The position numbers and the translations under genes were made by a program. Source: Oscillospiraceae bacterium (GTDB taxonomy: Bacteria; Bacillota; Clostridia; Oscillospirales; Ruminococcaceae). Taken from it: a stretch of DNA of 57,719 bases. Position 1 is the first letter of the stretch; every line of letters begins with the position of its first letter. Positions 8,316 through 42,187 of this stretch are shown here, piece by piece. Under the pieces are notes generated by a model that was given only the letters and a program-made list of their open reading frames with translations, was not told where the DNA came from and did not search any database. The DNA is taken from the NCBI GenBank assembly GCA_017473015.1, contig JAFUNP010000006.1:1-57719 (forward strand), in the 5' to 3' direction.

Positions 8316-10187
8316 TTATTTTTTCATTTCTCGCATTTTAAGCTCCAGCAGCAGTGAAGAAATATCACTTGGGCTTACGCCGGAAATTCTGGATGCCTGA
8401 CCCACATTTGCGGGGCGTATTTTAATCAGCTTTTCTCTGGCTTCCATGCGCAGACCATTCATTGTGCTGTAGTCAATATCTTCCGGAATCAGTGTATTTT
8501 CCAGCTTTTTGGTATGTTCAATCTGTGCCTGCTGGCGTTTTACATAGCCGTCATACTTGATGTCCACTTCCACCTTGCTGCCGATAAACGGTGTCACTTC
8601 TTCTCCTTCACCTATTACTTTTACCAGTTCTTCATAGGTAATCTGTGGGCGTTTCAGGAATTCGTTGGCTCTTACACCTGTGGACAGTGGCGGCAGTCCT
8701 TTGCTTTCCAGCAGCTCTTTCACCTGACCAGGCTTGATTGTGATTGAAGAAATTCTTTCGATTTCTCTGTTTTTCACTTCCAGCACATGGTTGTAATAAT
8801 CCCATCTTTCGTCGTCTACCAGACCTATTTCCCTGCCCATCGGTGTCAGTCTTTCGTCAGCATTGTCCTGGCGGAGATACAGTCTGTACTCACTGCGGCT
8901 GGTCATCATTCTGTATGGGTCCAGAACGCCTTTTGTAATCAGGTCGTCAATCAGTGTGCCGATATAAGAGGACTGGCGTGTGAGAGTGAACTCATCTTTT
9001 CCCTGCAGCTTTCTTGCAGCGTTGATACCTGCTATCAGACCCTGTGCAGCAGCTTCTTCATAACCGGATGTACCGTTGAACTGGCCTGCACCGTAAAGAT
9101 GAGGATATTTTTTGAATTCCAGAGTAGCTTTCAGTTCCAGAGGGTCCACACAGTCATATTCAATGGCGTATGCAGGTCTCATAACCTCCAGATTTTCCAG
9201 ACCTTTGATTGTCTTGTAAAATGCCACCTGTACTTCCTCCGGAAGTGATGAGGACAATCCCTGCAGATACATTTCATCAGTATCAGCACCGCAAGGCTCA
9301 ACGAAGAACTGGTGTCTTGGCTTGTCAGAAAATCTCATTACTTTGTCTTCCAGAGACGGACAGTATCTTGGACCGATACCTTCGATTTTGCCGCCGTACA
9401 GTGGAGAGCGGTGAATATTGTCCATAATTACCTTGTGTGTATCCAGGTTTGTGTACTGAATATGGCAAGGCAGGATGTTTTTGATTTCGTGTCTTGTCAT
9501 AAATGACATAGGCACTGTTTTTTCATCACCTTCCTGCACATCCATTACAGAAAAGTCGATACTACGTTTGTTTACACGGGCCGGTGTGCCTGTTTTAAAG
9601 CGGCGCAGTTCAATGCCTGCAGCTTTCAGGCTGTCAGACAGCTTCATTGCGCTGTGGTGGCCGTCCGGACCGGAATAGTAGGCCGCATCACCCACATAAA
9701 TTTTACCTGTCAGATATGTACCTGTGGCGATAATTACCGCCTTGCAGTCGTACTGTGTGCCCAGCTGGGTTACAACAGCAACAGGCTCGTTGTTTTCATT
9801 GAACTTGATTTCGCAGATTTCTGCCTGTTTCAGGTCCAGGTTTGGCTCTTTTTCCACCAGATTTTTCATATATGAATGATATTTCATACGGTCTGTCTGC
9901 TGGCGCAGAGAGTGAACAGCAGGACCTTTGCCCAGGTTCAGCATTCTCATCTGCAGTGCACAGGCGTCGGCAGCTATGGCCATCACGCCGCCCAGAGCGT
10001 CAATTTCCCTTACCAGATGGCCTTTGGCTGTACCGCCGATGGCAGGGTTACAGGGCAGGTTTCCCACCCCGTCCAGAGTCAGTGTGAACAGACCGGTTCT
10101 GCAGCCCAGTCTTGCGCTGGCCACAGCCGCTTCTATTCCGGCATGACCCGCACCGATAACAATTACATCATAATTTCCTAATACCAT
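8316..10187 (-). CDS. mnmG: tRNA uridine 5-carboxymethylaminomethyl modification enzyme MnmG (GidA)
   Basis: 623 aa with FAD motif [11 protein letters not shown] and a conserved GidA core. Confidence 0.95.
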
Positions 10188-10491
10188 AAATAGCTCCTTT
10201 TAGGTTTAAATGTCTGTTAACTTTGCAATCCCTTTCACCGATTGTAAGCAACTAAAATATATATTCCACCGGTTTCCCGGATGGTTGACTGAATTAAAAT
10301 CTGTTTTTGATATAAATACAGATTTGCTCTTATATTTTCAACATTATTTTTAACAAATGTTGAATTTCTTATATTTTTCACAGTTTTTAAAGAAAAACTG
10401 CAATAAAACCCGGATTTTAAAGATTTTTCGAAAGATCAACAATATTACATTTTGTAATATTTATTTTAATTATATTACTATAAGTATTTTT

Positions 10492-18118: not shown

Positions 18119-20062
<1,944 letters not shown>

Positions 20063-22149: not shown

Positions 22150-22362
22150 TTATTCTGCTACAACGATAAAATCATCACCGTTGAAAGATACCACGTCACC
22201 TACGCGCAGTTTTTTGCCGCGCTGTGTACACACTTCACCGTTTACTTTCACTTCGCCGTCCTGGATAAAACCTTTGGCGTCGCCGCCTGTGTAAACCATA
22301 TCGGCAAATTTCATAAACTGGTCCAGTTTGATAAATTCTGTACTAATTGCAATCTCAATCAT
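22150..22362 (-). CDS. yaaA: S4-domain RNA-binding protein YaaA
   Basis: 70 aa; lies between dnaN and recF as in B. subtilis yaaA. Confidence 0.7.
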   Translation of the reverse strand: MIEIAISTEFIKLDQFMKFADMVYTGGDAKGFIQDGEVKVNGEVCTQRGKKLRVGDVVSFNGDDFIVVAE

Positions 22363-23458
22363 TTTTAAATCTTACCGGCAGTACCAGATAGGTAAAGTCG
22401 TCTCCTTCCTTAGGAATAATTTTACATGGGGCCAGAGGGCCGGAGAATTTAAAAATCAGCTCTTCTTTCTTGCTGGCCTTCAGTGCATCCAGAATATATC
22501 TGTTGTTGAAGCCGATTTCCAGGTCAGGACCTACCTGTCCCACGCTGATTTCGTCATAAACATCGCCCAGCTCTGTAGCGCATTTTACACTGAGAGTATT
22601 TTCTGCAATATTCATCTTCACAGGGTTTCTCAGTCTTTCTGTGATAATCAGTGAAACTCTTTCCACTGCTTCCTGCAGGCTCTTTGTGTTGATAACTGCA
22701 TCTGTCATGTAGTTTGCAGGGATAGCTTTTTTATAATCCAGGAAATCGCCTTCCAGCAATCTGGACAACACAATAAAATCACCTGCTTTAAACATAACAT
22801 ATCTGCGGGATGCAAAAATTGTCAGTTTGCCGTCCTTGTCACCCACAATTCTTCTTACTTCGTTCATGGCCTTTGCCGGTACAATCATGGTAAAATTGCC
22901 GTCAAAATCCACTTCTCTTTCACACACAGCCAGTCTGTAACCGTCCAGAGCAACCATTGTCAGCTGTCTGTCCTCCAGTTTAATCAGCACGCCTGTGTGT
23001 GCAGGTCTTTTTTCATCTGTGGAAACAGCATAAATAACATAGTCACACATTTCTGTAAACAGGCTGTTTTCAATTTTTACGCTGTTGTCCTTGCCTGCAG
23101 ATGGAAAATCAGGATAATCTGTGGAATCAATACCTTTGATGTTGTATTTTGTGATACCGCTTCTGATTACGCAGTTCATTCTTTCGTCGCAATCAATGGA
23201 AATGGTATCATTGTTTACTTTTCTTACAATGTTGCCCAGCAGCTGTGCTGACAGAACCACATCACCTTCTCTTTCCACTTCACATTCAAAAGTGGTTTTG
23301 ATGCCCATTTCAAAATCGTAGCCTGTCAGTGTCAGGCTGTCATTTTCGGCTATCAGCAGAATGCCTTCGATAGCTGCCAGATTGCTCTTTGCAGCCACTG
23401 CCCTTGAAACTATCTGTATAGCTTCATTCAGCTTGTCTCTGTCGCAAACTATTTTCAT
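22355..23458 (-). CDS. dnaN: DNA polymerase III beta sliding clamp
   Basis: 367 aa with three-domain beta-clamp architecture; downstream of dnaA. Confidence 0.9.
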   Translation of the reverse strand: MKIVCDRDKLNEAIQIVSRAVAAKSNLAAIEGILLIAENDSLTLTGYDFEMGIKTTFECEVEREGDVVLSAQLLGNIVRKVNNDTISIDCDERMNCVIRSGITKYNIKGIDSTDYPDFPSAGKDNSVKIENSLFTEMCDYVIYAVSTDEKRPAHTGVLIKLEDRQLTMVALDGYRLAVCEREVDFDGNFTMIVPAKAMNEVRRIVGDKDGKLTIFASRRYVMFKAGDFIVLSRLLEGDFLDYKKAIPANYMTDAVINTKSLQEAVERVSLIITERLRNPVKMNIAENTLSVKCATELGDVYDEISVGQVGPDLEIGFNNRYILDALKASKKEELIFKFSGPLAPCKIIPKEGDDFTYLVLPVRFKND

Positions 23459-23559
23459 ATTTTTATTCCTTTCAGCTTTTTAACAATTTTTTATTATCAG
23501 CTTTTTATTTTTTCTTCTTAATGGGAAAAAAGTTTCCCACTTGCTATATATTTTAAACA

Positions 23560-23935
23560 GCAGTAGTAGTAGGGGCGGTTGAAATGTTGAAACTCTCCCT
23601 AAACCCTTATGAACACTGGAAATTTTCAACATTTTTCACTGTTGAAAATCTGTTTAAAATTTGTTTAAACACTGTTGACAAAATTTTTGCCTGTTGAAAC
23701 TGTTGAAAACTTATTGTTGAATGTTGAAAACTTTGTTGAAAAAATTTTCATCAAATTCTGAATGATTATTCATACAGTTGAATTTAAAATGAATATATAT
23801 TCACTAAAATTACTTTCCACCAATTTTCACCCTGAAAAGACATATGTTTTTCAACATTTTTCAACAATTTGTTTTATTTCAGTTAAAAATTATAAATTTA
23901 TTTCATTTTTCATGTATTTCTGAATAACAGATTTC
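23560..23935. promoter_or_regulatory. oriC: oriC element (dnaA-dnaN intergenic): about 12 DnaA-box-like 9-mers TGTTGAAAA/TTTTCAACA plus an AT-rich unwinding element at 23870-23935
   Basis: Dense direct and inverted copies (gttgaaatgttgaaact, ttttcaacatttttcactgttgaaaatc, ctgttgaaactgttgaaaacttattgttgaatgttgaaaactttgttgaaaaa). The motif matches TGTGGATAA at 7 of 9 positions. The position is canonical for Firmicutes incC. Confidence 0.7.
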
Positions 23936-23974
23936 CAGGTTTTCATCGATATACAGTAATCCCACAAATCAGAG

Positions 23975-24200
23975 TTCTGTCATCCTGAGGAAGACTTTGT
24001 CTGACGAACCCACTACGCTCGCAGGACAGGCTCGCGTTTTTGCCTACGGCAAAACCATTCAGTCGCTACGCTTATCTCCTCTTGCTCTTTCTGCACAAAC
24101 CTGAAAATATGCTGTGTCGGCTTCCGGGCGATTCGTGAATCGCCCCTACGCGTAGAACCTGCGTATACAAGGCTCCCATTCAGGCGACTGAGGGGTTATA
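23975..24200. repeat. Composite repeat block between oriC and the dnaA stop (TGTCATCCTGAG unit, a module shared with 2020-2095 and 26760-26820, REP 24126-24152, gactgaggg module)
   Basis: cactacgctcgcaggacaggctcg...caaaaccattcagtcgctacgc matches 2020-2095 and is the reverse complement of 26768-26820. The REP is identical to the RAYT1 internal copy. Confidence 0.75.
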
Positions 24201-24205
24201 TTCAG

Positions 24206-25510
24206 TTACAGTGTTTTTACATTTTTTATAATATCTTCCACTGTGTCGCGGAAGAAGGAGTTTGTCTTTATTTTCTTGTCCACCTGTTTCAGTGTGTATA
24301 CAACTGTGGAATGGTCGCGTCCGCCGAACTCTTTGCCTATTTCTTCCATGGTCAGACCGCACACTTCCTTCACCACATGCATGGCCATCTGTCTGGCTTC
24401 GCTGATTTCCCGCTTTCTCTTCTGGCTTCTCACATCAGCAGCTGTCACATTGTATACCTTGCATACATCGGTGATTATTTTTTCGATTGTCACCGGTGTG
24501 CTCATCTGTTCGTTGAGAATATCCTTGATTGCGGCCTGGGCATTTGCCATAATCGGCGGTTTGCCCTCCAGCTTCTGCATTGCATCCAGCTTTTTAACCA
24601 CGCCTTCCAGCTGACGGATGTTGGTTTTCACCTTTGAAGCAATAAATTCAATAACTTCAAATTTGATGTCCATACCCAGCAGGTCAGATTTTCTTTTGAT
24701 GATGGCGCATCTTGTTTCAAAATCCGGTGGCCGTATGTCGGCTATCAGACCCCATTCAAACCTGTTTCTCAGCCTGTCTTCCAGACTTTTGATTTCTTTC
24801 GGCGGTCTGTCAGATACCAGTACTATCTGCTTGCCGGCATTGTGCAGTGCGTTGAAAGTGTGGAAAAATTCTTCCTGTGTACTTTCCCTGCCTGCTATAA
24901 ACTGAATATCGTCCACCAGCAGCACATCTGCCTGACGGTATTTGTTTTTAAATTCACTGGTTTTGTTGTCTTTGATTGCTGCGATGATTTCGTTGGTGAA
25001 ATCCTCACCGGACACATACACAATGTTTGCCCCCGGATTATTTTTCAGAATTTCCGCCCTGATAGCATTCAGCAGATGGGTTTTGCCCAGACCGCTGTCC
25101 CCATGTATAAACAACGGGTTGTAGGAATTGGACGGGTTCTGTGCTACAGCCAGCGCTGCCGCATGGGCAAATTTATTGGAAGAACCTACTATGAAAGTAT
25201 CAAAAGTAAAAGCGTATTCGCCGCTGTTTACAGGTTTTACTTCTTCGGCTGCTTCTTCTTCGGTTGGTTTTATGGCTATGTTCAGCAGAACTGTGAAACC
25301 CAGCACATCCTCAAAAGCCTCTGTCAATAACCCTTTGAATCTGTTGTTTACAGTGTCCTGCAGCCATTCGTTGGCCACATACAGTGTCACAGTGTCACCG
25401 TCCATGCTGCCGGCCTCCATCGGGTCCAAAAACAGCTTGTAAGACGCCTGCACCATGCGCTGTGCACAGTAGTCTTTTACAGCTAAAAATACATCATTGA
25501 AAGATTCCAT
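24206..25510 (-). CDS. dnaA: chromosomal replication initiator DnaA
   Basis: 434 aa with AAA+ Walker A GDSGLGKTHLL and a domain IV DNA-binding signature (ARQMAM...FGGRDHSTV). Confidence 0.95.
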   Translation of the reverse strand: MESFNDVFLAVKDYCAQRMVQASYKLFLDPMEAGSMDGDTVTLYVANEWLQDTVNNRFKGLLTEAFEDVLGFTVLLNIAIKPTEEEAAEEVKPVNSGEYAFTFDTFIVGSSNKFAHAAALAVAQNPSNSYNPLFIHGDSGLGKTHLLNAIRAEILKNNPGANIVYVSGEDFTNEIIAAIKDNKTSEFKNKYRQADVLLVDDIQFIAGRESTQEEFFHTFNALHNAGKQIVLVSDRPPKEIKSLEDRLRNRFEWGLIADIRPPDFETRCAIIKRKSDLLGMDIKFEVIEFIASKVKTNIRQLEGVVKKLDAMQKLEGKPPIMANAQAAIKDILNEQMSTPVTIEKIITDVCKVYNVTAADVRSQKRKREISEARQMAMHVVKEVCGLTMEEIGKEFGGRDHSTVVYTLKQVDKKIKTNSFFRDTVEDIIKNVKTL

Positions 25511-25660
25511 TTATACTCTCCTGACTTATTACATTAATAACTAAAATTATACCATATTTAACCCATAAAAACAACATTTTAATATAAGTATAATAATCTA
25601 AATCATAAATATATAAATAAACAATATTTATCTAAAATAACTAACATTTCCCCCATAAAA

Positions 25661-25669
25661 TGTTGAAAA
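25661..25669. promoter_or_regulatory. single DnaA-box-like 9-mer TGTTGAAAA upstream of dnaA
   Basis: This is the only box-like copy in the 950-bp dnaA-rpmH spacer, which is otherwise filled with REPs. Confidence 0.4.
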
Positions 25670-25693
25670 CTGTTCCTTTTTAAAAACTTAAGA

Positions 25694-26240
25694 GTAGGGT
25701 GCGATGCCCACATCGCACCGTTGCCGGTCTGCCGTGGAAGTGAGCGTAGCGAAACGACCATGTGCAGATGCCGAGTTTCGTTATCGAGGCAAGGCAATGC
25801 GATGCCCACATCCCACCACTTATAAAAAGATTTCCTTTGTTTTGTTGTAATTGCGGCCGGTTGATGTCGCTCATAGTATACCGTAGGGGACGGCGTCCTC
25901 GACGTCCCAAGGGCGGATACTGTCCGCCCCTACGCGAGGCAGCGCACAAATCAGAGTATTGTCATCCTGAGCAAGCGTAGCGCGTCGACGCCTGCCGCAG
26001 CAGGTGTGCAGAGCCGCAACCGAACGAAAGTGAGGCTCTTGGCGGCGAGCAAGGATCTTTGCCGCTACAAGCGGCAACGGGATGTCCAGAGGCCATCCCC
26101 TACGCGAAATGCAAAAGCCTCCCATGTGCAATGGCCCAGGCCAGCTTCTCTTGCCCTTTGGGCAATTCACCGTCGGGGTGGTGGCCGAGTGTAACGCGGC
26201 CGGAGGGGTTGTTTATTCAAATCTCCGCGGGACGGGGAGC
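25694..26240. repeat. Large REP/BIME-like cluster upstream of dnaA (bracketed GCGATGCCCACATCGCACC hairpins, two GTAGGGG REPs at 25881-25936, TGTCATCCTGAG unit 25955-26075, REP 26078-26106)
   Basis: At least six GC-rich hairpins with GTAG(G) heads. The hairpin GGGACGGCGTCCTCGACGTCCC equals 6124-6153. Confidence 0.8.
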
Positions 26241-26462
26241 CTGTATTGGCTTGCTCGCCTTCTCCTGTATTTTCCGTCATTTCCACTATTTTTCTGTTTT
26301 AAAATATAATATTTTACCCAAATTCACCTTTTTTTGCACTTGACAATTTACCTTCTTTTATTATATACTTTTATCTTGCAAGGTTATGACCTTGACAGAT
26401 ACAGTCGGCAGCGGATTTTCCGTTTGCATATATAAAAATAATAAGACAGGAGGACAAAAACA

Positions 26463-26597
26463 ATGAAAAGAACTTATCAGCCAAAGAAAAGAACTCGCGC
26501 AAGAGTACACGGCTTTCTGAACAGAATGGCTACAAAAAACGGCAGAAAAGTAATCGCTAAAAGAAGATCAAAAGGCAGAGCTAAACTCGCAGTTTAA
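26463..26597 (+). CDS. rpmH: 50S ribosomal protein L34
   Basis: Translation [44 protein letters not shown] (44 aa), the canonical L34. Absent from the ORF track because it is under 60 aa. Confidence 0.9.
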
Positions 26598-26741: not shown

Positions 26742-26850
26742 GCTCCCTTGTGTAAAGTCGGCGTAGCCGAATGAATGGTTTTGCCGCAGGCAAAAACGTG
26801 AGCTTGTCCTGCGAGCGTAGTGAAGCTGTCAGCAAAGCTGACTGAGGGAT
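26742..26850. repeat. Composite repeat (ctcccttgtgtaaag head, a module that is the reverse complement of 24008-24075, gctgactgaggg tail) between rpmH and rnpA
   Basis: Shares modules with 1775-1825, 36512-36700 and 57672-57719. Confidence 0.7.
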
Positions 26851-29892: not shown

Positions 29893-30402
29893 ATGACCTC
29901 ATATATATCAAAAACTGAAATAACTCTGGAAAAATATATGGAAATAAGCAACAGGCCTCTGGGCAAAAAGGCCCGTGCTGACCTGAACCGCTGGAAAATC
30001 ACAAAAATTGCCGGAATCGCAGTTTCTGCTGCTATCGCAGGATTGGCCCTTAATTCCGGCATGGGCGAATTTTCACTTATCAGCGGAGTGTTTGGTCTGG
30101 TGATGGCTTATCAGTTGTTTTTCCAGCGAAAAAACCTTATAAAGAAGAAATATGCCGAAACAGTTGACCTGCTGCCGGATAAAAAATGGGTGCGCACCAT
30201 CACATTTGATGATAAAATCACTGTGGCCGACGGCAACAATTCCTCTGTTTTCGCCTACTCCGATTACAAATGGGCATCCGAAAACGAGGGTTATTTCCTG
30301 CTGTACCGCAATGAAAACATAGTTCTCCGTGTGGAAAAAGGCAGCTTCACCTACGGTAATGAAAAAGACTTCCTCCGCTGGATTAGCAATAAATTAAAAT
30401 AG
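29893..30402 (+). CDS. YcxB-like membrane protein (hypothetical)
   Basis: 169 aa with two central TM helices and a PH-like C-terminal region. Paralog-like relative of the gene between gyrB and gyrA. Confidence 0.5.
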   Translation: MTSYISKTEITLEKYMEISNRPLGKKARADLNRWKITKIAGIAVSAAIAGLALNSGMGEFSLISGVFGLVMAYQLFFQRKNLIKKKYAETVDLLPDKKWVRTITFDDKITVADGNNSSVFAYSDYKWASENEGYFLLYRNENIVLRVEKGSFTYGNEKDFLRWISNKLK

Positions 30403-30539: not shown

Positions 30540-31110
30540 TTTACACCGGGTATTTTTTTATTCCATAACTTTTCAACTTTTTAAACATTTTTAAACTTTT
30601 AGATGTTGAAATGAGAAAATAATACATAACTATATAATACATAATTTCACACTTTGGCACAAAATTGACCACCGGTTTTACTATTTGTAAAGTTTTAAAC
30701 AAAGTTTTCAACACCATGTTGAAAACTAAAATTAAATAAAAATGCTTATTTTTGGGCAAAAACACTGATTTTGGTAAAAAATGGCAGTTGAAAATTTTTT
30801 CGCCGTTTTACTATCTGTAATTTTCCACAGTTTTTAACATTTTCAACAGAGTTTTCAACATTTTCTCAGTTTTCAACGAAAAAATTAAGTTTTTATCATT
30901 AAATTGTTGAAAACTCTGTTGAATTCGTGGAAAACTATACCCAAAAACTACATTTTCAACTGGAAATCCGGTCCGTAATCCAATATTTTGGCAAAAATAT
31001 GTGGAAAACATTCTATATATAGTGTAAAATAAAAATCAGATTAAAAGTTAAGGGGATGTTAAAAACTGTGGAAAAATTGCTATTTTCTCAACAAATTTAC
31101 CATTTTGGCG
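30540..31110. promoter_or_regulatory. Second DnaA-box-like cluster (about 16 copies of TGTTGAAAA/TGTGGAAAA in both orientations) downstream of jag/tRNA-Thr
   Basis: Examples: ttttcaacagagttttcaacattttctcagttttcaacg, ttgttgaaaactctgttgaattcgtggaaaact, tatgtggaaaac, ctgtggaaaaa. Positionally analogous to the B. subtilis jag-thdF DnaA-box cluster. Extends into the first 50 nt of the queG ORF. Confidence 0.6.
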
Positions 31111-31856
31111 TCGTAAGTTTTCAACATTTAAACATTCTGAATGTCCGTTCAAAATCCAGAATTCCACCGGATTGTACCGCAGCAATCGCCATAATTTTTC
31201 CTTATTACAACAAAAATGCCTTTATGGGAAACATCAGTGCATATTGCAGTGTCCCGGACTATCACATTGTGGTTATGGAACAACTAAAATCCATATGTGA
31301 GAAACTGTCGGAAAAATATCCCGGTCACAGCTTTGTCCCTTTTGTAGACTCCTCTCCCGTAGATGAAGTGGACATGGCGGTGAAGGCCGGTCTGGGCGTA
31401 AAGGGGGACAATGGTCTGCTGATTACCCCCACTTTCGGCTCCTATGTGTTTATAGGTGAAATCCTCACCACCCTGCCCCTTGCCTCCACCTGTCATGCTG
31501 ACCGCGGCTGTCTGCACTGTGGTCGCTGTGCCACTGCCTGCCCCGGCGGTGCCATAGCAGAGGGCCGTGTTAATACAGAAACCTGTGCCAGCCATATCAG
31601 CCAGAAAAAAGGTGAACTGACAGAAAAAGAAACTGATATTCTCTCCCGTGCCCACACCGTTTTCGGCTGTGATATATGCCAGACTGTCTGCCCAATGAAC
31701 AGAAATGTAAAAGAAACCGAAAACCTGTTTTCACAGGATATTATTTCAACAATCACCACGGAAAATGTGGAAAGTCTGTACAAAAACCGTCCTTTCGGCT
31801 GGCGTGGACTACCGGTTCTGAAAAGAAACCTGGAAATTTATTATAACGGCAGATAA
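31056..31856 (+). CDS. queG: epoxyqueuosine reductase QueG (short form)
   Basis: DUF1730-like N-terminus (VPDYHIVV, FVDSSPV...AGLGVKGDNGLLITP.GSYVFIGEILT) followed by two 4Fe-4S motifs CLHCGRCATACPGGAI and FGCDICQTVCPMN, the QueG signature. Start uncertain (internal Met at 31224). Confidence 0.7.
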   Translation: MLKTVEKLLFSQQIYHFGVVSFQHLNILNVRSKSRIPPDCTAAIAIIFPYYNKNAFMGNISAYCSVPDYHIVVMEQLKSICEKLSEKYPGHSFVPFVDSSPVDEVDMAVKAGLGVKGDNGLLITPTFGSYVFIGEILTTLPLASTCHADRGCLHCGRCATACPGGAIAEGRVNTETCASHISQKKGELTEKETDILSRAHTVFGCDICQTVCPMNRNVKETENLFSQDIISTITTENVESLYKNRPFGWRGLPVLKRNLEIYYNGR

Positions 31857-36422: not shown

Positions 36423-36511
36423 GTAAATTCCATTTTGTCGAACGGATAAAGGGCGCACTTCTATACACTTACTGCGTATACCGTGCGATGTACGGTCTTG
36501 CACCGCACCAA

Positions 36512-37387: not shown

Positions 37388-37455
37388 CTGTCATTCTGAG
37401 GAGTGTAACGACGAAGAATCTCCCCCAAGATGACAGCCCAGATATGAATGACACG
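37388..37455. repeat. About 65-bp TGTCATTCTGAG...CGAAGAATCTCC...ATGACAG...AATGACA repeat (copy 2 of 3)
   Basis: Near-identical architecture to 29695-29758 and 45628-45695. Confidence 0.8.
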
Positions 37456-41008: not shown

Positions 41009-42187
41009 TTAAATAACAGGACCCAGGCAGAAAATGTCCATACTGCCAAAGTATCCCAGTGCTTCGTTTTTTGTCATTTTGCCGTTGAGAGTGTCCAGCA
41101 GCATCCGGAATGCTTCTTCGCCCACCTGGTCAATGCTCTTTTCACCGGTGAGAATGCGGCCTGCGTTCAGGTCCATATCATGCTGCATTCTTTCATATGT
41201 GTTTGGGTTGCCGCATATTTTGATAACCGGCATGGACGGGAACCCCTGTGGTGCGCCGCGTCCGGTGGAGAACATCATCACCTGTGCACCTGTGGCCGCC
41301 ATACCTGTGAGAATTTCCGGCTCTCTGCCCGGAGTATCTTTTATCCACAGCCCTTTGTGGTCGGTCACCATTTCGGTGTATTCCATCACACCCTGGATAG
41401 GTCTGTGGCCGGATTTTACTATAGCGCCCAGACTCTTTTCTTCTATGCTGGACAGACCTCCGGCAATATTGCCCGGTGTAGGCTGTCCGCCGCGCATATC
41501 CTCACCTACCGACATGGCTCTCTTTTCCATTTCGTCCACTATCTGATAGATTTTCTGTCCCACAGGACCGTTTTCACCGCCTACAGCACGGCGTGCCAAT
41601 ATATGTTCGCCTCCCAGAAATTCTGTGGTTTCGCCGAACACCACTGTTGCACCCAGGTCCACCAGCTTGTCTGCCACATAGCCGATTACACAGTTGGATG
41701 CCATACCGCTGGTGGTGTCAGAGCCGCCGCATTTGATTGACATAACCAGATTGGAAATATCCGCCGGCACTCTCTGAATACCGCTGATTTCCTGTACCAG
41801 ACGCTGTGCCGCATCGATTCCGGCCTGGATTGCACGGGATGTGCCGCCCAGTTCCTGAATATGTATGATTTCCACAGGTTTGCCTGTGGCTTTGATTTCT
41901 TCGTAAATTTTCTGGTGGTCAGTGCCCTCACAGCCCAGTGAAACTATCAGTGCCGCGCCTACATTGGGGCTCTGACCCAGCCGGCTGAGAGTTTCGGTCA
42001 CTCTTTTCAGGTCCAGCGGCAGCTGGCAGCAGCCCTGATGATGAAAATAGCCTATGGTGCCCTGTACCTGGCGGCACACAGCCTGGGCCACATCATTGGC
42101 ACACACTACGCTGGGGATAACCGCCACCAGATTTCGCACGCCATACTTTCCGTCGGGGCGCGGATAACCCATAAATGTATATGACAT
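41009..42187 (-). CDS. UxaA-family (altronate/galactarate) dehydratase, large C-terminal subunit
   Basis: 392 aa; homology pattern of the UxaA C-terminal domain. Paired with the upstream SAF-domain small subunit. Confidence 0.75.
   Translation of the reverse strand: MSYTFMGYPRPDGKYGVRNLVAVIPSVVCANDVAQAVCRQVQGTIGYFHHQGCCQLPLDLKRVTETLSRLGQSPNVGAALIVSLGCEGTDHQKIYEEIKATGKPVEIIHIQELGGTSRAIQAGIDAAQRLVQEISGIQRVPADISNLVMSIKCGGSDTTSGMASNCVIGYVADKLVDLGATVVFGETTEFLGGEHILARRAVGGENGPVGQKIYQIVDEMEKRAMSVGEDMRGGQPTPGNIAGGLSSIEEKSLGAIVKSGHRPIQGVMEYTEMVTDHKGLWIKDTPGREPEILTGMAATGAQVMMFSTGRGAPQGFPSMPVIKICGNPNTYERMQHDMDLNAGRILTGEKSIDQVGEEAFRMLLDTLNGKMTKNEALGYFGSMDIFCLGPVI

Follow-up and report, generated by a model that had tools for sequence, protein, structure and literature searches.

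The spacer between dnaA and dnaN in a stretch of 57,719 nucleotides (hereafter the window) from an uncultured, gut-type Oscillospiraceae MAG very probably contains the incC/oriC2-type unwinding half of the chromosomal origin, and the tightly packed 9-mers of the spelling TTTTCAACA found there would be the DnaA boxes of that origin. While this reading is drawn from sequence, the identity of the 9-mers as DnaA boxes is strongly supported by the architecture of the region and by its conservation in related bacteria.

In the window, which belongs to a clade of Clostridia with ~44% G+C, the minus strand carries dnaA, dnaN, an S4-domain gene, recF and gyrB, which is the classical Firmicute origin gene set, while rpmH, rnpA, yidC and jag lie on the plus strand and are transcribed away from dnaA, such that gene orientation switches divergently at the origin locus. 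The genes flanking the spacer were identified by Pfam: the 434-aa product of dnaA matches Bac_DnaA (7e-73) and Bac_DnaA_C (1e-24), and that of dnaN matches the N-terminal, central and C-terminal domains of DNA_pol3_beta (E 1e-30 to 3e-24). This orientation switch and an A/T skew that flips sign at ~25-26 kb of the window speak for an origin here; against it, GC skew shows no clean sign change within the window and only weakens, from ~-0.15 to ~-0.03, near 25 kb. When the spacer was searched for structured RNA (Rfam, E<=1), two sub-threshold chance matches and nothing else were returned. The features to which the following paragraphs refer are:

22355-23458, minus strand: dnaN, DNA polymerase III beta clamp, the downstream flank of the origin
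23459-23557, no strand assigned: A+T-rich stretch, putative DNA unwinding element
23558-23572, plus strand: five DnaA-trios, 5'-CAGCAGTAGTAGTAG-3', three 3'-GAT-5' followed by two 3'-GAC-5'
23573-23578, no strand assigned: GC cluster, GGGCGG, separating the trios from the box pair
23577-23593, minus strand: box pair of the unwinding module, GTTTCAACA (23585-23593) and the weaker ATTTCAACC (23577-23585)
23623-23631, plus strand: single inverted exact TTTTCAACA box, just outside the array
23640-23742, minus strand: head-to-tail array of ten boxes directed towards the trios and dnaN
23745-23866, plus strand: boxes of opposite orientation directed towards dnaA, TTTTCATCA, TTTCCACCA, TTTTCACCC and two exact TTTTCAACA (23848, 23858)
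24206-25510, minus strand: dnaA
25661-25669, minus strand: isolated exact box, upstream of dnaA at 159 nt from its start
30570-31134, no strand assigned: second cluster of ~20 boxes, between tRNA-Thr and a queG-like gene

The part of the spacer closest to dnaN displays the organization of a DnaA-dependent unwinding module. On the dnaA-sense (minus) strand the trios read CTACTACTACTGCTG, with a central A in all five, and positions 23593 to 23558 read 5'-GTTTCAACA-TTTCAACC-GCCC-CTA-CTA-CTA-CTG-CTG-3', such that 12 nt separate the end of the strong box GTTTCAACA from the first trio. The weak proximal box ATTTCAACC, which overlaps the strong box by 1 nt and the last two bases of the GC cluster, is poorly conserved in relatives; the GC cluster itself stays C/G-rich in them. 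Directly 3' of the trios, and extending up to dnaN, is the A+T-rich stretch (~77% A+T over 23459-23560), from which a DNA unwinding element is inferred and which also holds the dnaN leader and ribosome-binding site. The trio module lies ~96 nt from dnaN, at an equal distance in relatives, and a scan of the 57.7-kb window found the combination of a box, a GC spacer and at least three CTA trios at this site only. The basal unwinding system, established in B. subtilis and then sought throughout bacteria, consists of a DnaA box, which a second, weaker one may accompany, a GC-rich interval and three or more trios whose middle base is adenine, the spacer having a limit of 16 bp and a commonest length of 13 (PMC8287927). 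Every one of these sequence features is found here, in the form of the 12-nt spacer, the five trios, the GC cluster and the A+T-rich tract, and, as for the basal unwinding system (Richardson 2016; Pelliciari 2021), the module is kept in relatives. Placement of the repeats in the dnaA-dnaN (incC-type) interval beside an A+T-rich element, as put forward in an earlier note on this DNA, is thus borne out by the Pfam-identified flanks, the trio module, the base composition and conservation.

Upstream of the module, exact TTTTCAACA boxes occupy four positions of the head-to-tail array (23640, 23701, 23722 and 23734), and the variants TTTTAAACA, GTTTAAACA, TTGTCAACA, GTTTCAACA and CATTCAACA also occur in it. 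Four array boxes, spanning 23640-23681, are spaced at exactly 11 bp, and a block within the array, TTTTCAACAnAGTTTTCAACATTCAACAGnAAGTTTTCAACAGTTTCAACAGG, is nearly invariant across seven genomes. Among the boxes directed towards dnaA, the pair at 23848 and 23858 is kept in most of six aligned relatives (alignment columns 350-380). These elements suggest a course of events in which domain IV of DnaA would bind the dense array (23640-23742) and the box pair (23577-23593), an oligomer of ATP-DnaA would grow from the box pair across the GC cluster onto the trios (23558-23572), and the oligomer would then stretch one strand and open the A+T-rich stretch (23459-23557) for helicase loading.

The arrangement is shared with B. 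subtilis incC and Clostridioides difficile oriC2 in its dnaA-dnaN location, in the order of its elements, in its A+T-rich tract and in the trio CTACTACTA (dnaA-sense), with a spacing of 12 nt compared to the published mode of 13; the trios likewise resemble the C. difficile oriC2 trio CACCTACTACTATTACTACTATGA (PMC7561715). Unlike in those two species, TTTTCAACA is found here instead of TTATCCACA, the array is much denser, with ~15 boxes packed into 290 bp, only one exact box is present in the rpmH-dnaA spacer, and DnaA residues 423, 435 and 439 differ.

Counts of the 9-mer identify it as the dominant repeat of the region. The window contains 16 exact copies of TGTTGAAAA/TTTTCAACA where 1.61 would be expected, and 0 of 100 shuffles attain 16, and 74 copies against 32 expected are found when one mismatch is allowed. 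Seven exact copies lie at 23623-23866, one at 25661, six at 30705-31126 and two elsewhere, such that 14 of the 16 fall within three regions near dnaA, mostly intergenic (one is inside the queG CDS). An unbiased k-mer count, for which the expectation was computed from the rest of the window, ranks TTTTCAACA as the most enriched 9-mer of the dnaA-dnaN spacer (7 versus 0.04 expected) and also of the second cluster (5 versus 0.04 expected), and reveals no other enriched candidate motif in the dnaA-dnaN spacer. Across 11 clade genomes the enrichment of TTTTCAACA over the flanks is 14.8-fold. In addition to the exact copies, one-mismatch boxes with an intact or near-intact core are found at 23585, 23651, 23673, 23692 and 23745, further one-mismatch copies lie within the A+T-rich stretch at 23477 and 23551, and several copies in the spacer carry two mismatches; ~15 boxes (<=2 mismatches, core intact) are contained within 23577-23866. 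The earlier claim of about 12 packed direct and inverted 9-mers accordingly agrees with the seven exact and five one-mismatch boxes, to which weaker copies are added, and the dominance claimed for TTTTCAACA over TTATCCACA holds.

With respect to canonical spellings, TTTTCAACA differs from TTATCCACA by two mismatches, at positions 3 and 6, and thereby lies within the TTATNCACA family of DnaA boxes; as is characteristic of such boxes, it is over-represented and clusters in intergenic DNA flanking dnaA. The C at position 6 (C6) that forms part of the CACA core of that family is replaced by A (A6) in ~90% of boxes. Of 30 matches to the degenerate motif TT[TA]TC[AC]ACA across the window, 17 belong to the two clusters or to the box that precedes dnaA. 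Perfect TTATCCACA is absent from the intergenic DNA of the window, as had been stated, but it occurs twice rather than once within ORFs: at 19330 in gyrB and at 41341 in the ORF at 41009-42187. No cluster of canonical boxes, near dnaA or elsewhere, is present within the window. The occasional exact TGTGGAAAA previously reported for 23560-23935 is not found there; exact copies are located in the second cluster, at 30821, 31000 and 31067.

Conservation of the spacer was assessed in relatives whose dnaA regions (DnaA 60-94% identical) were gathered by exact-protein look-ups; a genome-collection scan returned none above 54% DnaA identity among the matches listed. In a footprint alignment of seven dnaA-dnaN spacers, comprising the window and six relatives with DnaA 76-94% identical, columns identical to the window amount to 81% in boxes, 93% in trios, 51% in between-box spacers and 71% in the A+T-rich stretch, the figure for trios referring to the 12 scored columns of the core CTACTACTAC. 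Including the window, 12 of 13 close-clade loci carry the trio module (L092 is the exception), it lies 96-110 nt from dnaN in every clade locus having one except L090, and it is present in several more distant Oscillospirales as well. Orthologous boxes interchange TCAACA, TCCACA and TAAACA between relatives; in one of them (L086), for instance, TTTCCACAGG and TTTTCCACAA stand opposite TTTCAACAGG and TTTTCAACAG of the window. Among Oscillospirales further removed from the clade, the box that precedes the trios by 12-13 nt is spelled TTTTCCACA at three loci (L002, L008, L065) and TTTTCAACA at a fourth (L003). Because the orthologous pre-trio box can be TTTTCCACA, TTTTCAACA in the window stands exactly where relatives have a DnaA box.

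Boxes of the same spelling are found at additional sites in the window. The single box at 25661-25669 is likely an autoregulation site, and a box at -159/-160 from dnaA is also found in two relatives (L084, L089). The second cluster contains six exact TTTTCAACA, one of which is inside the queG CDS, three exact TTTTCCACA and variants, and it is conserved and linked to queG in six relatives, at a distance from dnaA of 4.7-9.9 kb. It may represent an origin-proximal DnaA-box cluster, of the kind described in B. subtilis, for example, between jag and thdF (PMC2533591). Like the jag-thdF cluster it is dense, intergenic, a few kb from dnaA, beyond jag and without an unwinding module, while its linkage to a queG-like gene rather than thdF/mnmE distinguishes it. 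The second cluster may serve in titration or in the control of initiation or of queG; the possibility that it is the true unwinding site was rejected, since it lacks the module of box, GC cluster and trios. Between jag and the second cluster is a conserved ORF of 169 aa (29893-30402) with no Pfam match, and similar unannotated ORFs of 179-204 aa are found at the equivalent place in two relatives (L084, L086).

A small group of boxes is also observed at 10335-10382 (TTTTCAACA, TTTTTAACA, inverted AATTCAACA and TTTTTCACA), upstream of a 623-aa ORF (8316-10187) that is taken to be mnmG/gidA on the basis of its length and a neighbouring 455-aa mnmE-like ORF. These are possible DnaA-regulated or origin-associated sites and, together with the second cluster, they fit the pattern of a DnaA regulon or of titration. 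The motif is read as a DnaA box in part because it also marks the kinds of site that DnaA binds in B. subtilis (PMC2533591), namely upstream of dnaA, beyond jag and upstream of mnmG. Two box-like 9-mers within coding sequence (24859-24867 and 31118-31126) are conserved across relatives and appear to be accounted for by the encoded protein sequence, EEFFHTF (dnaA) and SFQHLN (queG-like gene), respectively; classing them as regulatory boxes would require more evidence.

The rpmH-dnaA spacer (25511-26463) is occupied mostly by G+C-rich repeats and carries only the exact box at 25661. In B. subtilis the corresponding spacer is the site of the large incA/incB box clusters, and two relatives (L081, L082) have five boxes in theirs; in this genome, the upstream half of a bipartite origin may have shrunk or moved elsewhere. 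The G+C-rich, hairpin-rich repeats lie at 23963-24200, 25690-26230 and 26750-26850, as well as at 37389 and 45629, share a common module, CACAAATCAGAGTnnTGTCATCCTGAG, and have no Rfam match. A 55-nt segment at 24011-24065 is 93% complementary to 26768-26822. These repeats look like small mobile insertions that have invaded both the dnaA-dnaN and the rpmH-dnaA spacers, and the closest relative (L084, DnaA 94%) lacks the dnaA-dnaN copy, its spacer measuring 457 nt compared to 747 nt in the window.

How unusual the box spelling is can be gauged from usage in other Firmicutes. Boxes were counted as 6-mers in the dnaA-dnaN spacers of sampled loci, and the fractions with A at position 6 (A6) and T at position 3 (T3) were as follows:

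This clade (DnaA identity >=60%), 11 loci: TCAACA 80, TCCACA 9; A6 0.90, T3 0.86
Other Oscillospirales-type DnaAs (S435/Y439), 15 loci: TCAACA 28, TCCACA 49; A6 0.36, T3 0.97
Canonical T435/H439 Firmicutes, 39 loci: TCAACA 22, TCCACA 107; A6 0.17, T3 0.24

Judging from these spacers, T3 is common to the whole order while A6 is specific to the clade in which DnaA is at least 60% identical, which suggests a picture of two steps: an order-wide adoption of T3, as in the cyanobacterial-type box TTTTCCACA, and then a shift of this clade to A6. Drift towards A+T as the sole cause of A6 is unsupported, given that spacer G+C is 0.30 in the clade and 0.33 in the canonical T435/H439 Firmicutes, in which A6 stands at 0.17 although their spacers are comparably A+T-rich. 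Across 86 Firmicute loci T3 tracks loss of the His at the position of E. coli H439, an association confounded by phylogeny: the T3 fraction is 0.24 (T435/H439) and 0.36 (S435/H439) where His is kept, 0.87-1.0 in the Y/S439 groups SY, TS, SS and AS, and 0.67 in two T435/Y439 loci.

In the published record, position 6 is C in every one of the experimentally defined high-affinity boxes that have been tabulated, species-specific boxes deviate by one or two bases, and the H. pylori box, with two mismatches, is the most distant 9-mer (PMC4285127). Because C6 is present in all high-affinity boxes, a DnaA of the E. coli type would be expected to bind TTTTCAACA poorly. The sequence 'ttttcaaca' has been used as a non-perfect box in DoriC-based work (PMC2671203), and a full-text literature search for TTTTCAACA in connection with DnaA returned nothing on Clostridia. 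Several known systems nonetheless come close. As given in PMC3322544, which cites Cordova et al. 2002, the mollicute box consensus is 5'-TT(A/T)TC(C/A)ACA-3', of which TTTTCAACA is a literal instance, and boxes flank dnaA in mollicutes as well; in mollicutes, however, position 6 alternates between C and A and there are few boxes, whereas A predominates here by ~9:1. The oriC of Thermoanaerobacter tengcongensis, for which DnaA binding has been demonstrated experimentally, has the consensus TTATCNACA (PMC1888806) and, like the present origin, belongs to a Firmicute without being restricted to C at position 6, though it lies upstream of dnaA, keeps A3 and shows no preferred base at position 6. 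The cyanobacterial DnaA box, TTTTCCACA (PMC10225481), shares T3 but keeps C6, and is the norm in other Oscillospirales. The degree of atypicality first attached to the box is overstated in view of the mollicute and Thermoanaerobacter precedents. The TTTTCAACA spelling is at the edge of the known range and still inside it, and constitutes a lineage-specific spelling of the box, not a new kind of element, positions 3 and 6 being variable in other bacteria.

Domain IV of the DnaA encoded in the window had been described as conventional, a description that does not survive comparison with E. coli. The base-contacting residues R399, P423, D433, H434, T435 and H439 were taken from the literature (PMC2533591, PMC7561715, PMC5043019), and in an ungapped alignment to E. 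coli 1J1V chain A three of the six are replaced (P423E, T435S, H439Y) while R399, D433 and H434 are kept. The recognition helix reads RDHSTVVY, E stands at the position of E. coli P423, and the motif FGGRDHSTVVY predominates among 120 homologues. Substitutions specific to the clade are R405E and T418C (T in 72 of 75 others). The contact residues have been said to be conserved in all Firmicutes (PMC7561715), and changes at 435, 438 and 439 accompany altered box recognition in epsilonproteobacteria (PMC5043019).

Two alternatives to a DnaA-box identity of the 9-mers were weighed. The earlier note had raised the possibility that they are Spo0A '0A boxes' by which the sporulation regulator would control the origin; sites used jointly by DnaA and Spo0A are a variant of this reading. 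TGTTGAA is indeed one base removed from TGTCGAA, and at the origin of B. subtilis the boxes of Spo0A and DnaA reportedly overlap; the differing base, however, is the C of the CGAA core, exact TGTCGAA occurs in the window only at 36436 and 40227 (2 versus 5.5 expected) and in none of the three box-bearing regions, and none of the dnaA-dnaN spacers at 13 close loci contains TCGACA. Moreover, the orthologous sites of relatives become TCCACA, a change towards the DnaA consensus and away from the 0A box, and a position 12 nt before DnaA-trios is a geometry specific to DnaA. The Spo0A reading was rejected on the absence of TGTCGAA from the origin regions and on the direction of the shift in relatives, and is scarcely credible. 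Somewhat less remote, but still highly improbable, is the proposal that the repeats are bound by another origin-associated or regulatory protein and that DnaA acts through a few weak sites. Such a proposal draws on the two mismatches between TTTTCAACA and TTATCCACA, one of which affects the normally invariant C6, and on the conserved ORF without a Pfam match beside the second cluster. It would, however, leave DnaA without boxes beside its own trios, since no other motif is enriched in the spacer. DnaA is the more economical reading because boxes at orthologous positions switch to TTTTCCACA and because position 6 is known from the literature to vary between C and A.

Within the preferred reading, that of DnaA boxes, a further question concerns the protein itself: the DnaA of this clade might have changed its specificity so as to prefer A6/T3 and discriminate against TTATCCACA. 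This is rather doubtful. Suggestive of it are the rise in A6 across the three groups counted above at similar spacer G+C, the replacement of three of six contact residues relative to E. coli, and the clade-specific R405E and T418C. Against it, the second cluster retains TCCACA alongside TCAACA boxes, origins of the T. tengcongensis type accept any base at position 6, and the single Thermoanaerobacterales locus sampled has canonical contact residues. The candidate determinants also fare poorly when taken individually. H439Y was rejected, as one clade member (L081) has H439 and still uses TCAACA over TCCACA by 7 to 1, and as the helix RDHSTVVY is also that of Oscillospirales in which TCCACA predominates; replacements of P423 bear no consistent relation to A6, with E, A, Q, V, K and S found in both groups; and the case for R405E and T418C is weakened by the presence of this E and this C in the DnaA of Aquifex aeolicus (2HCB/1L8Q). 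Given the evidence on H439Y, the helix and R405E/T418C, no residue can be tied to the A6 shift. The shift may reflect either a tolerant DnaA accompanied by drift of the boxes or a true retuning; a co-evolution of DnaA and its boxes to a T3/A6 code, driven by residues 423, 435 and 439 and possibly by R405E and T418C, is a tentative suggestion that seems rather unlikely.

What is described here is an ordinary, well-formed Firmicute-type origin that reveals no new mechanism, and its significance lies in the spelling of its boxes and in the protein presumed to read them. Origin predictors that use TTATCCACA with <=1 mismatch would miss nearly every box of this clade. For these Oscillospiraceae the motif to supply is TTTTCAACA or TTTTCMACA, which would aid peak-to-trough growth estimates and the design of oriC vectors in uncultured gut and rumen bacteria. 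The clade also offers a clean natural example of a shift at position 6, the base that is C in all experimentally defined high-affinity boxes, and its DnaA, which differs at half of the canonical contact residues, contradicts the statement that these are conserved in all Firmicutes (PMC7561715). Should the co-evolved code prove true, the succession from TTATCCACA in canonical Firmicutes, through TTTTCCACA in other Oscillospirales, to TTTTCAACA here would provide a stepwise series for how DnaA reads positions 3 and 6.
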